Origin: a bacterium
GTDB taxonomy: Bacteria > Chlamydiota > Chlamydiia > Chlamydiales > SM23-39
Direction: 5' to 3'
Length of the DNA: 64,000 nucleotides
Assembly (NCBI GenBank): GCA_021809325.1
Contig: JAKBAE010000001.1
Span: 20,397-84,396 of the forward strand
Shown here: positions 36,001 through 42,000 of the stretch, piece after piece
Numbering within the stretch: the first letter of the stretch is position 1
Layout of the letters: every line of letters begins with the position of its first letter
Made by a program: the position numbers

Positions 36001-39000
36001 CCATGCCGCTCAAGATTAAGAAGTGCCTGTCGGGGACGTGGACGGTGGTCTGCAGGTTTGCTTGGTTCGTCGTGATCCCTGAAGCTTGTCCGGCTTGGAA
36101 GTCAAAAGTAGCGCCGCTGCTGTCTGTGGACTCGCTCGAGTTGTCGATGGTCAGCTCTAAGGTGATGATGTTCGAGTTGCCAAGCACTGGGGTGATGCTT
36201 AGGCTGAAGCCGATATTGCGATACTCGAGGTTGGAGGTCGTGACGGTGTTGGCCGACTGGTTGGAGATGAATGAGCCGGCAAACGGGACGTTTTGTCCAA
36301 CGAATACGGTCGAGGTCTTGCCATCTTGAGCGATGATCTTCGGCGTCAATACGACAGACGTTTCTCCGTCGGTCTGGATCGCGTTTAAGAGCGAGCCGAG
36401 CGAGAGAAACGACTGGCTTTTGTGCATGATGATATCGCCGATGACGCCGAGGTCGAAGCCGGAGCTGAACGGAATGTCTGTCGGTACGGGCGTATTCGAT
36501 GCCGTGATGTTTTGCAAGTTGGAGGAGAAGGTGCCGTTCGAGACGGTGTCTGTCGGCAGGAGGTTGTTGAAGCTGCCCGAGAACTTGTTTTTGTATTTGA
36601 TCTTACCGCCCCATTCCAGGCCGAAGTCGACGGCGTTGGTGAGAGAGGTTTGCAGGACGAGCATTTCGATGAAGACCTGCTTGAGCGGGATGTCGAGGTT
36701 TTTGATCAGCTCGCGCAGCTTTGTGAGCGTCTCGGCGTCACCGGAACAGAGGAGGGAGTTGGTCACCTCCAGCCATTGGATCGATTGGATTGCATTGAGG
36801 AGTCCCTCGTTGACCGTCGCTTTCGATGTCTTCAAGTCATTTCCAATCTGGCGCAGCGCTCCTTGGATCTCGTCGCCGCGATGGAATTGCAGCTTGTAAA
36901 CAAGGAAGCTTGTGTTGTCGATCGACTGGATTTCTGAAGCAGCGGGTGCAGCCGTTTCTTCCTTGGGAGATGGGACGTCGAATTCTCTGAGAAGCTCTTT
37001 AACGCGATCGAGTGTTTTGGGGTTTCCTGTGAAAAGGAGCGATTGGGAGTTAGAGACAAAGCGCATCGATTCGATTGATTGGAAGAGATCGGGGTCGTTG
37101 AGGCCGCTGAGCTTGAGGTTTTCTGCAAAGTCGTTGATCGTTTTTCCAAGTTCTTCTGCGGTAGTTGCCTGAGGGCGGTAGATGAAGAAGTTAGACGGCC
37201 CTCCGGTTGAGGTCGGTAGCGTGAGTTGCGGCTTGGGGGCGGCTAAACTTGCGACGTCGAATTTTTCGACCAGGTTTTGCACTTTCCCGAGGGCATCTTC
37301 GGTGCCTGTGAACATGAGCGAGTTGGTCTCTTTCACATACTTCATGCTGCTGAGGGCCGAGACGAATTCTTTATCAGCCGCGCCGGATTTTTTTAAATCC
37401 GTTGAGATCGCTTTGAGGGAGGTCGTGATTTGCGTGGGGCTCGCATTTTGCAGCTTGTAGAGGAGGAAGGTCGTCTTTCCGATGTGCTGGATCGGCGCAT
37501 GTTTTTGCGTCGGGATGTCGATGTCTTTTAGCATCGCCTGGATCTTCTGGATCGCTTCCGGCGATCCCGTGAAGATCAGCGAATTGGTGCTCTCAACGTA
37601 TTTCATCGATCCGATGGCAGAGAGCAGCTGCGGGTCTGCTAAGGCGGATTGCTGCAGGTTCGATGCAATGTCCCGAAGCGACTTTTCGATGGCCGCGGCC
37701 GACTGGTTTTGCGGCTTATAGAGGAAGAAGTTCCCGGGGCCCGAGGGAGCGGCTTTTCGCGGGTAGTCGTATTTGGCGATGATCGCTTCTGCTTCCGTGA
37801 CGGCTGCGGGCTCCCCTGTCAAGAGCAGCGAGTTGGTCGCTTTTACGTAGCGGATGTTTTCCAGCACCTTCATCAAGGGGGTTTCCTTCATTCCCGTAGA
37901 CTGCATATTCTTGATGAGGTTGTCGAGGTCCTCTTCGATGACATCGCCTGTCGTGTTCTGCACTTTGTAGATGCTGTATCCCGGCTTGACTTCAATCGGC
38001 GTCTGTTTGGGGACATCAATGGTAGAGAGGAGCTGATCGAGCCGCTTCAAAGAGGCTGGATCTCCCGTAAAAAGGATCGAATTGGTGTTTTTGACATACT
38101 TCATACTACCAAGAGCGCGGAGAAGGGCGGGATCTTTTAGATCGGAGGACTGCAAGCTGTCTTTATAGTCTTTCATGGCGCGGACGATTTCTTCGCCGGT
38201 GAGAGATTTTGGTTTATAGATCAAAAATTGGCTGCTGCTGGCGATGGCCTCCGTTCCGGTATCAAATTGCTGAGCTAAATCCTGCGCCCGTTGAATAGCC
38301 TCGTTTGGTCCGGTAAAGAGGATCGAGTGGGTTTGTTTGATATATTTCATCCCGTCGATGGTCCGCACCAGCTCGGGATCTACCTTTGCTTTTGAGAGGT
38401 TGGATGAGAACGCTTTTAAGGCGTCTTGCAAATCGCCCGGATCTGCCATTTGGATTTTATATACGGCGAAGTTGGCCTGGCCGATGACTTTCCCTGCTGC
38501 GGCCGTCAGCTCGCTTGCTTTGCTGCCGGTATCTAAGGAAGAGATCACTTCTTTGAGCTTTGCGTTGACAGCCGGGTTTGCGACGAAGACGAGCGTGTTT
38601 GTGTCTTTGATCCAGTTCGCATTGTCGATCGCTTCCTCTATTCCCGGCGTCCCTTGCATGCGGGTGGCAATTTCTTTGAGGTTTTGGAGTACGTCGTTGC
38701 CCTGGCGATGCATGAGTTGAACGACCAGAACCTCCGATTGTTTTTGCATCTCGGCCATCGCTCCCTTTGTAGGAGGTGTGTCGAGAGAAGCTAAGACCGC
38801 CGCCGCTTTCTCTCCAAGCTCCGGGGTTGTGACGATGAAGATCGTATTAGCAAGAGACTGTGGGACGAGGATAAACGGGCTTCCTTGAGCGATCGGGTTC
38901 ATGATCTGATGGGCTAAATTGATCAGATAGTCGGGATTGTTGAACTGAACCTGATAGCTCCGGATTTCTATGGGGGAGTGGGGGGTATCGAGATTTTCGA

Positions 39001-42000
39001 TCAAGGCCGCGGCTTTATCGACGCTTGCGGTGATGTCGGTCAAGATGAGCTGGTGCGTTTCTTGCGAGACCTCGATCAGGGCGTCGCTTGAGATCATCGG
39101 CTGGAGGATCGCTGCGATCGAACCGGGGTTGGCATACTTGATGCGGAAGACCCTAGTTACGATTGGAGCGGTGGATTTGTCTTCGAAGACGAGGGAGGCA
39201 ATCTCCCGCACTGCTGGGTTTTTGTGGATGACGAGACTGTTTCCTTGTTCGAGAAGCGCTAATCCATGGATTCTCAGCGTTTGCAGCAGCGTTGCCATTA
39301 CATTTTCAGGTGTGATCGGCGCGTCTGAGACAACAGTTACAGTAAATTGCAAATCTTCTTCGCTGAAGATGAAATTAATGTTGCAAATTTTGCTTGCAAA
39401 TCGAATGTATTCAATGATCGAGATCGTGTTATAATTAATCGTGTAGCCCTCTTGCATCGGGGGCGTTGGATCGGTTTCTTCAGCGTGCAAGAAAATAGGT
39501 GTGAATACAAGCAGGAGCAGTGCGCTGAGATAGATGAGAAAATGTCTTTGGCTCAGATTCATGCGTGTAGATTCGCAATTCGTATAGGTGGACCTGCTTG
39601 AATCGTAAAATACCCGCTCAATTATTGCAATGGCCCAAGAGGAAAATCTCCCTCTTTTTTTAGATGAAAATCGATGTGTCATTTTTATAAAAAACTTTTA
39701 CCAAAATAAAATACTTTTAAGCTGTCTCGAGAATGCGGATTCCGAGCTGTTCGCCTAGATAGACGATCTCTGCCCTGCCAACTTTTTGTCCGTTGACAGT
39801 GAGGACGACTCCCTGCTGCGGGTCGATCGGGAGTTCGAGAAAGTTACCGGGGGATAGTTTCATGAGCTGGTCTACCGACATGCGCAGGCGTGCGAGCTCG
39901 ACGGTCACAAAGAGGGGAAAATCTTTGACGGCCATCGATTTTCCTTCTTCCGGGGGGATGGCATTCTCTTGTGGTAGTTCAGGAACGGATTCGTTTTCCA
40001 GTTCGGGAGAAGGTTCTTTTGTTTCCATATCTTCCTCATAGAATAGCGCGTAATCGAGCAGTTTGATCTTGTTTTCTTTAATGGCGACGTGAAAGAGCGG
40101 TGTAGAGCCTAGCATCAAGGTTGCGGCGCCGGTTTTTTGTTTTGCGTCGTAACTTCCTTTGTCGAGGAGGACGAAATCTCCTTTTTTCAGGTTTTTCCAC
40201 TCTTGGGCCCTCAAAAGGATGCTCCCCGTTTTCACGCCGATAGGCACCTCGATGCTTTTTGCAAGAGGGGAGAGGGAAAAAATCTCGCGCAGCGATGCGA
40301 AATGTCTTTGCCAAGAGGTCATCAAATGCGAGCTGATGATAAGGCGTCCCCAGCAGCTCTTTTCTTCGAAAGAAAGTTTGATGTCTGCGCACCAGCAAGC
40401 TTCTTGGGGGAGGGGAGCCTCTTCATCGAGTTTTAGAGAGATCTCTTTCAGCGGCTCTTGGGATTGGAGCGCATCGAGCGCATTGAGAGCCAGATAGCGG
40501 TAAAAACCCTCTTGCAAGATCTCGGAGCCGACGCTTGGGCCTTGGGCCTTTCCGTTTAAAAGCCATGAGGTGAGGGAAGCGATATCTTTTTTGTCCATGA
40601 CCCAGAAGAGCTCTCCGCTCAGCGGCGTCAGTGTAGCTCCGAGGGTAAGCAAATTACTGCCGAGCCCCTCGGTGAGATGGAAGGCTTCTTGCCATGAACA
40701 CTCTCCCAATTCTAAAGCAAGGCCGCTGACCCCGAAGCAAGAGGAGATGGAAGAAGAGATCTTCTCAAGATCGAACCTCGGCGCATTTCCGTAGAGGGGG
40801 ATGCGATCTAGAGCAAAAAGCGCTTCGTCAATTTTGCGCACCCAGTGAAGAGGGGCTAGATTTTGCATGGTCTACTCCTCCGATCCTTCGTCTGATTCTT
40901 CTTCTTTATCCCGATGGGAAGACCATCTTGAAGAGAGAGCTGTTTCTAAGCGCACGACGCGAAAATCGATCTCGCGGTTATCGTAAGCCACCTGAAAGGC
41001 CATTTTGAGGTTTGAGAGGTTTTGATCAAAAATCTGGACCGCTTGGGGAGATCCTTGCAGGTAGATATTTAGTGAGCCCGGAGCGGTTTTATGCTGTTCG
41101 ATGACAACGGTTGTATTGTTAAAAGGAGACTGGTTCAGCTCTGCTCCTCTCAAAACGATCTCGGTACGGCTCACGCCCGGAGTCGTTGCTTGAACAAAGA
41201 TGATGGCTTTGACGAGCTGTTGAAATAGGACTTCGGTTACCGGATTTAAATACGAGGCAGCCGCAACTTGGGCATTTTGGGCGATGAAGCCGAACTGTGC
41301 GGGAAGGGGATCGGGCAAGATGAGCGGTTTTTCTTCGCGCTCTTTGTCGGCCTCGCTTTTTTGCTCGATTTTGGAGGCAGGGCCCTTTTTCTCTTTGGGA
41401 GCAGGGCTTTGCCTTTCCAATTGCTGTTTTGGCTTTTCTTCGCGGCTGCTTGGACGAAGAGCTCTGGCGGCGGCTTCTTCATCCGTTCCTTTTTTTGGAG
41501 GCGGCGAGACCGAGGCGAGGAGTTCTTGCTGGGAGTTGAGTTTTGTTTCTTTCTTTGCAAGCGGGGTATGCTCGCCGGCCTGGCGCTTTCTTTTCATAGG
41601 GGCTAAACTTGGCTCTGACCTTTCCTCAAAATTCCTGCGGGGCGGCGGGTCGTCCGGCATGTCGAAGTCTTGCCAGAATGAATCTGATTGCGGAAGTTCA
41701 TTTTTTAGATGGGACGGAGGCCTTGCCACCGGTTCATCGATCGAAGGAGGAGGAAATTCCGGAGGTGTTTCAATGATTTTGTCTGCTAGGCGCTCGAAGC
41801 CTTCGGGAGCCGGATTTGAGGGGATCATTGAAGTTGGCCGCTCAGGGGCTGAAATTTTTCCCTCGATAGTTTGATAGCTGTGAGCGAGCTCTAGCGGGGA
41901 TGGGGAGAGGAAAGGAGGAAGGGCGTTCTTATTTTCTTTTGCAGGGGTTGGAAATGGGTGGCGGAGTTTTTCTTTGTCTTGGCTGTGCAACTCGTGTGTT

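Follow-up and report, generated by a model that had tools for sequence, protein, structure and literature searches.

Introduction

CdsC (CT674), encoded in the type III secretion gene cluster of Chlamydia trachomatis, is an atypical secretin of 921 amino acids (aa), larger than other injectisome secretins, which clusters with type II and phage secretins and combines a unique hydrophilic N-terminal domain of 250 residues with classical N-domains; it is associated with an elongated, compressible basal body of 34 nm (Nans et al., PMC4682100). All chlamydial non-flagellar type III secretion systems (NF-T3SS) use a secretin resembling that of type II secretion systems (T2SS) (Abby & Rocha, PMC3459982). 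Here, a secretin gene was analyzed that lies in a stretch of 64,000 nucleotides (hereafter the window) of contig JAKBAE010000001.1, assembly GCA_021809325.1, from a member of the Chlamydiota (lineage SM23-39). Like CdsC, its product is a large, T2SS-like secretin encoded in a chlamydial type III cluster. Unlike CdsC, to which it was compared by published description, it has no hydrophilic N-terminal domain of about 250 residues of the Chlamydiaceae type (PMC4682100): its N0 domain follows the signal peptide almost directly, and its extra length (1276 aa) comes from an array of ten Secretin_N modules.

GspD, XcpQ and PulD are the closest relatives in sequence and structure for N0, N-domains and pore, as judged by TIGR02517, the Protein Data Bank (PDB) and Foldseek. 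They have domains N0–N3 only and about 650 aa, and are encoded with gspC–M, whereas the window secretin has ten modules and stands in a type III cluster. InvG, YscC and MxiD (SctC), with which it would share its role and position in the machine, have the same N-domain and pore folds (Foldseek E about 1e-5), but these proteins are built as N0-N1-N3 and measure 560–610 aa. PilQ of Thermus thermophilus, from another phylum, serves the type IV pilus and DNA uptake; it has 757 aa and bridges a wide periplasm with a stack of six N rings (PMC5745081). The window secretin differs from it in having N0 and ten modules, a number that rises to about 25 in relatives, in belonging to a type III system and in having an extra short helix after alpha1.

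An array of ten N-domain modules

An earlier reading of the window from its sequence alone (the sequence-only reading), which gave CdsC about 920 aa, in agreement with the published length, had described a secretin of about 1276 aa with about ten small modules between an N0-like domain and the secretin core. The longest open reading frame (ORF) at this place, 35732-39682 on the minus strand, encodes 1316 aa counted from its first ATG. The second ATG (MNLSQRHFLIYLSALLLLVFTPIFLHAEE...; MNLSQRH) opens a hydrophobic stretch resembling a signal peptide, alignments with homologues start at its methionine, and the resulting 1276-aa form is 100% identical to a database protein (P0001). Residue numbers of domains and modules refer to the 1316-aa ORF; the interval 36689-39157, to which the array had been assigned, corresponds to residues 176-998, inside this minus-strand ORF. 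The gene and its parts are as follows.

35732..39562, minus strand: secretin gene, 1276 aa counted from the MNLSQRH start
39482..39562, minus strand: putative signal peptide, MNLSQRHFLIYLSALLLLVFTPIFLHA followed by the cleavage site and then EE, read directly off the sequence
39233..39439, minus strand: N0 domain, aa 82-150; Pfam PF21305, GspD-like, E = 1e-9, 38.5 bits against a cutoff of 27
38972..39157, minus strand: module 1, N1-like, aa 176-237; Pfam E = 5.4e-9; same position in nearly all homologues
38768..38962, minus strand: module 2, N2-like, aa 241-305; Pfam E = 2.4e-3, under the cutoff when scanned singly; fold in the AlphaFold2 (AF2) model; same position in most homologues
38516..38725, minus strand: module 3, first of the variable middle zone, aa 320-389; Pfam E = 3.9e-3; repeat hidden Markov model (HMM) E = 5e-9; AF2 fold
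38249..38473, minus strand: module 4, variable zone, aa 404-478; repeat HMM, Pfam, AF2 fold
38003..38230, minus strand: module 5, variable zone, aa 485-560; repeat HMM, Pfam, AF2 fold
37754..37981, minus strand: module 6, first of the conserved C-terminal block 6-10, aa 568-643; repeat HMM, Pfam, AF2 fold, homologues
37505..37732, minus strand: module 7, aa 651-726; best Pfam stretch, E = 4e-12; AF2 fold, homologues
37244..37471, minus strand: module 8, aa 738-813; repeat HMM, Pfam, AF2 fold, homologues
36965..37192, minus strand: module 9, aa 831-906; repeat HMM, Pfam, AF2 fold, homologues
36680..36910, minus strand: module 10, N3-equivalent, aa 925-1001; abuts the pore domain; most conserved module family-wide
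35864..36382, minus strand: secretin pore domain, PF00263, aa 1101-1273; E = 1.9e-33, 115.9 bits against a cutoff of 27.5

Both hallmarks of the secretin superfamily are present, namely the PF00263 pore and an N0 domain accompanied by at least one beta-alpha-beta-beta-alpha N-domain. N0 begins about 15 residues past the predicted signal-peptide cleavage site. At the other end, the wider pore core extends from about residue 1003 to the C-terminus, with matches to GspD and PilQ sequences of the PDB down to 1e-32. Besides N0 and Secretin, Pfam counts ten Secretin_N (PF03958) stretches (239.7 bits, whole-protein E = 2.2e-72) in an array spanning aa 176-1001, which bears out the number given by the sequence-only reading. 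When ten segments of about 80 aa were scanned singly, Secretin_N was the best family for each of them (E from 4e-12 to 4e-3), and seven passed its gathering cutoff of 28.2 bits, modules 2, 3 and 6 being weaker. Matches of the modules to the Pfam families HNOBA, KH and carbonic anhydrase were weak, overlapped Secretin_N and were disregarded.

Seven of the modules are very regular, as had been noticed. Their F.(I/V/L)YK.Q-type strands begin at aa 405, 486, 569, 652, 739, 832 and 926, with a spacing of 81-94 aa, and the loop motif MKY(V/I)..T.S..FTG occurs in five strict copies and two degenerate ones; the three peptides originally quoted as examples lie in modules 4, 5 and 7. An HMM built from the seven regular copies recovered these with E = 1e-33 to 1e-38; it also matched module 3 (E = 5e-9) and, weakly, module 1. 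In an AF2 model of residues 68-1010 (29 aligned sequences, mean predicted local distance difference test score, pLDDT, 72), every module was folded, with block pLDDT of about 75-85, and the linkers between modules, of 3-18 residues and partly rich in Pro, Gly and Ser, had pLDDT <50. Modules 1-2 are predicted to have the canonical beta-alpha-beta-beta-alpha topology; modules 3-10 add to the canonical N-domain a short extra helix after a lengthened alpha1. In Foldseek comparisons with the PDB the top match was XcpQ N0-N1-N2 (E = 8e-13), followed by GspD, PulD, ExeD and EpsD, and then by InvG and MxiD. Domain count, repeat HMM and AF2 model thus rule out that the protein has only the usual two or three N domains and otherwise low-complexity repeats. 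The predicted folds identify the modules as genuine secretin N-domains, a structured repetition.

An old expansion in a large family of secretins

Pairwise identity among modules 4-10 is 21-43% in protein and 39-56% in DNA, and modules 1-3 share 12-28% with the rest. No tandem repeat was found in the secretin gene with Tandem Repeats Finder (TRF). In a DNA repeat search only the codons of the conserved MKYV..TNS..FTG motif recurred, at a spacing of 246-261 nt and with 63-74% identity. A recent amplification at the DNA level was rejected on these grounds. Because identity between modules is low, TRF found no repeat and only motif codons recur, the module duplications, tandem and intragenic, are ancient, and their copies have been maintained by selection. 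The clear intragenic amplification announced by the sequence-only reading holds as intragenic duplication, though neither recent nor evident as a repeat in the DNA.

A search of 5.8 billion proteins (E<=1e-20) yielded 406 homologues, of which the best 120 were analyzed in detail. These have 1181-1856 aa, and all contain N0, Secretin_N and Secretin domains. Their named sources are metagenome-assembled genomes (MAGs) of Chlamydiae, Chlamydiales and Parachlamydiales, together with two MAGs labelled Verrucomicrobia/Verrucomicrobiota. A relative is encoded in 175 species-representative genomes, the closest being 66% identical, and the loci of the best 80 of these genomes were examined. Their taxon labels are Chlamydiota (Parachlamydiales, Rhabdochlamydiaceae, Anoxychlamydiales), Verrucomicrobia/Verrucomicrobiota in three cases and, for the rest, "uncultured bacterium" or "bacterium". 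Uncultured environmental lineages account for all of the 120 homologues and of the 80 loci.

To describe the arrays, each module of a homologue was typed by the nearest module of the window secretin. Nearly all of the 120 resulting strings read '12...6789A': modules 1-2 and 6-10 are fixed in position, and the middle zone between them holds 2-10 modules, in some proteins with local runs of a single type (for example P0004 and P0018). Total numbers were 9-17 modules among the best 120 homologues and 7-16 in genome loci not cut by a contig end, counts that the local module HMM may place too low by one in some proteins. A search with the module profile among 1.84 billion representatives returned 256 proteins at E<=1e-30, some of which belong to the same family (core 35-57% identical to the window secretin) and reach 2368 aa and about 25 modules. 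The range of the family is 8 to about 25 modules, and the window secretin, with ten, is an ordinary short member near the bottom. The description of its array as unusually long is right in comparison with characterised secretins, which have two to six modules, but not within its own family. No published description of an expanded Secretin_N array in chlamydial secretins was found by a full-text search whose coverage excluded most subscription journals; this family of long-array chlamydial secretins is large and apparently undescribed.

Separate from it are giant secretins of 3.7-5.5 thousand residues encoded outside the window (P0255-P0275), whose pore domains are only 20-27% identical to that of the window secretin. 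One of them, P0255, has 4404 aa, in which N0 and a Secretin domain accompany 44 Secretin_N stretches (Pfam).

Gene neighbourhood and co-variation with the ruler-position protein

The following neighbours of the secretin gene bear on its role.

39717..40868, minus strand: sctQ (cdsQ), directly upstream of the secretin gene; TIGR02551 138.6 bits, above cutoff; PF01052
40872..42098, minus strand: CdsP-position ORF, candidate needle-length ruler, 408 aa, between sctO and sctQ
45831-47729, minus strand: SctD/CdsD homologue, 632 aa, with two FHA-type stretches and the Pfam domains CdsD_PD1, CdsD_PD2 and CdsD_C
34801..35772, minus strand: conserved downstream ORF, possible secretin accessory protein, 323 aa

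Upstream of the secretin gene and on the same strand lie sctQ, the 408-aa ORF, sctO (YscO-like), sctN (T3SS ATPase), a weak SctI-like ORF and the SctD gene. This is the chlamydial arrangement cdsD...cdsN-cdsO-cdsP-cdsQ-cdsC, and sctQ precedes the homologous secretin gene in 49 of the 80 related loci. Needle length is measured by an SctP-type protein, and in Chlamydia the corresponding CT671/CdsP is encoded between cdsO and cdsQ (PMC3574062, PMC5040114). The 408-aa ORF occupies this position, and its product has a conserved C-terminal domain of about 110 aa and a disordered N-terminal part of about 260 aa. These features, together with weak Flg_hook matches and the literature, make it a candidate needle-length ruler. 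The 273 nt that separate it from sctO (42099-42371) hold no assigned ORF; perhaps the CdsP-position gene has an earlier start, or a small gene was overlooked there.

A longer array would demand a longer needle, so that the ruler protein is expected to lengthen with module number. In a sample of 39 loci and the window, longer CdsP-position ORFs went with more modules (Pearson 0.58, Spearman 0.56) and with longer secretins (r = 0.65). The raw correlation with module number survived leave-one-out analysis (r>=0.49). Felsenstein independent contrasts on a neighbor-joining tree of the secretin C-terminal region gave r = 0.67 (p = 2e-6), each further module going with about 26 aa more. The length of SctQ, used as a control, showed no co-variation (r = -0.21 raw, r = -0.03 by independent contrasts). 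A ruler extends by 1.5-1.9 Å per residue, the upper figure being the value for Yersinia YscP, and an N-domain ring is about 3-4 nm high. An increment of 26 aa per module therefore amounts to about 4-5 nm, on the order of one ring. The co-variation favours a spacer of stacked rings that lengthens the periplasmic conduit. Such a longer conduit had been suggested by the sequence-only reading; it gains indirect support from the ruler-position protein, but is not directly demonstrated.

Other features of the neighbourhood

The 323-aa ORF downstream overlaps the stop codon of the secretin gene. Its product has a lipobox-like N-terminus (LLFAAC), two C-terminal hydrophobic helices and weak TPR/BamD-like similarity, all family matches being weak. 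A homologue lies directly downstream of the secretin gene in 78 of the 80 related Chlamydiota loci (tblastn). By these traits the product may be a secretin accessory protein or a pilotin-like lipoprotein; no pilotin is known for the Chlamydia T3SS (Nans et al., PMC4682100).

Two tandem copies of a three-gene cassette lie near the type III cluster on the plus strand (49934-52776, encoding 160, 467 and 295 aa, and 53892-56787, encoding 158, 485 and 299 aa). The copies are 72%, 67% and 51% identical gene by gene, and the middle proteins have long hydrophobic stretches. A Pfam scan of the cassette proteins gave no match, and the GC content at the cassettes is lower (0.40-0.48 versus about 0.51). 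They may be paralogous chaperone/translocator operons (Scc-CopB-CopD-like). Finally, 33187-34338 on the plus strand encodes a 383-aa protein with a mitochondrial-carrier repeat (PF00153, E = 4.6e-13), that is, a eukaryote-type solute carrier in a chlamydial genome.

Discussion

The module array is probably a spacer made of stacked rings, a model we hold with moderate confidence. By its gene position the protein is the secretin of a chlamydial injectisome, and it belongs to a GspD-type lineage recruited by Chlamydiota for type III secretion; like other secretins, it would form a gated pore of 12-15 subunits in the outer membrane. Each module would most likely form one ring in the assembled multimer, and stacked rings would make up a long periplasmic tube around rod and needle, reaching from the outer-membrane pore to the inner-membrane rings of CdsD/CdsJ. 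Modules 1-2 would form the end proximal to the inner membrane, and modules 6-10 the end proximal to the pore, both fixed across the family. By gaining and losing modules in the middle zone the array would act as an evolvable length spacer, with which the needle-length ruler is apparently adjusted in step. The stacked N rings of Thermus PilQ provide a precedent. The periplasmic part of the CdsD homologue is apparently ordinary in size, so any extra trans-periplasmic length would need to come from the secretin.

Several points weigh against this model. Ring formation by all ten modules, their linear stacking and the length of the conduit are what we infer from observed domain content, predicted folds, gene context, copy-number variation in the family and co-variation with the ruler-position protein. 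Stacked linearly, N0 and ten rings would measure about 35-45 nm, beyond the whole 34-nm basal body of C. trachomatis (PMC4682100), and relatives with 25 modules would need 80-100 nm. Such excessive lengths imply either a very wide periplasm at the injectisome pole or that some modules are not linearly stacked. As to the ruler, the correlation is weaker (r = 0.39, p = 0.017) with the sctO-sctQ gap as a cruder proxy, and in outlier loci (L053-L055, L077) the ruler-position protein is short although the secretin has 12-13 modules. The starts of the ORFs were set mechanically; the contrasts were computed on a tree of the secretin itself. The CdsP-position ORF of the window has no significant family match; FliK/Flg_hook was found weakly in 3 of 30 homologues (best E = 0.038). 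Its AF2 model was poor (pLDDT 48) and gave uninformative Foldseek matches. A profile of its C-terminal domain found no match among PDB sequences, and a homologue search with the protein returned six homologues only.

The lengths implied by linear stacking of 20-25 modules are implausible and speak for another arrangement. The extra modules could be a tether or accordion, flexible and extensible, or else a scaffold that folds back or has a double wall. Their number would then set reach or elasticity instead of a fixed conduit length, and the basal body could adapt to a periplasm that changes in width between developmental forms or on host contact. The disordered linkers of the AF2 model, partly rich in Pro, Gly and Ser, would suit such an arrangement, as would two observations in C. 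trachomatis: contact with the host shortens the basal body by 4-5 nm, an effect ascribed to the linked domains that CdsC and CdsD have in the periplasm, and the periplasm of elementary bodies is widened locally (PMC4682100). However, the linkers are as short as those of the stacked N-domains of GspD and PilQ, all modules keep the ring-building fold, and the increment in the ruler-position protein per module matches the height of one ring. Such an arrangement, the main rival of the stacked rings, is rather unlikely.

Any role in the injectisome presupposes that the protein belongs to it, rather than being an ordinary T2SS GspD that merely lies beside type III genes. Family models at first sight speak for GspD. 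The GspD equivalog TIGR02517 scores 353.7 against a cutoff of 351.35, and the SctC models remain far below theirs (TIGR02516, 94.7 against 238.45; NF011873, 34.4 against 524). The best PDB sequence matches are GspD structures of T2SS, and many homologues are labelled GspD/PulD by the Joint Genome Institute (JGI). The TIGR02517 score, however, is marginal and summed over three stretches, being inflated by repeated matches to N-domains. The protein has neither the N0-N1-N3 architecture of SctC nor the N0-N1-N2-N3 architecture of GspD, with ten modules instead of three. Its gene directly follows sctQ in a cluster with the core type III genes sctQ, sctO, sctN and sctD (CdsD), a linkage recurring in related genomes, and this position argues for an injectisome secretin. 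No gsp gene was detected among the neighbouring ORFs scanned with Pfam, from about 22 kb of the window onwards, which are type III genes and unrelated housekeeping genes, and no second secretin was found in the window. A GspD-like sequence in a type III cluster is no contradiction, because chlamydial injectisomes use a T2SS-like secretin (PMC3459982), as also described for CdsC (PMC4682100). The window secretin combines these very traits, and its Chlamydiota origin is supported by the chlamydia-specific domains CdsD_PD1, CdsD_PD2 and CdsD_C of the neighbouring CdsD. It is very improbable that the protein serves a T2SS. By sequence it is of the GspD type and not of the SctC type, and its gene position points to the functional counterpart of CdsC/SctC. 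The name SctC given by the sequence-only reading is thus apt for the secretin of a chlamydial type III cluster, but not as a sequence family.

That the array is an artefact of assembly or gene calling, such as misassembled repeats in a contig of metagenomic origin, hardly merits consideration: the modules are too divergent in DNA to confuse an assembler and TRF saw no tandem repeat, the CdsP-like neighbour recurs on nine independently assembled contigs (four were inspected, and all three that reach far enough carry an adjacent secretin call of 1276 or 1316 aa), the 90% cluster of the secretin has members from Logan, NCBI and ENA, and the architecture is common to hundreds of homologues.

How a secretin's gate connects to the machine in the inner membrane is set by its stack of N-domains. 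Two to six rings are the range among characterised secretins, the six of Thermus PilQ having been described as exceptional. The interest of the present case lies in the pattern at family level, the window gene itself being an ordinary and rather short member. Carried further than the model for the single protein, and only tentatively, environmental chlamydiae may possess a spacer tube of 8 to about 25 stacked rings that co-evolves with the ruler, giving basal bodies two to three times as long as any characterised secretion machine, and the middle zone may be a hotspot that tunes ring number to envelope width. An orthologous series of 8 to about 25 modules, whose ends are fixed while the middle varies and the ruler apparently changes to match, would offer a natural system for studying how trans-envelope machines set and adjust their length, and would also explain the elongated chlamydial basal body seen by cryo-electron tomography.

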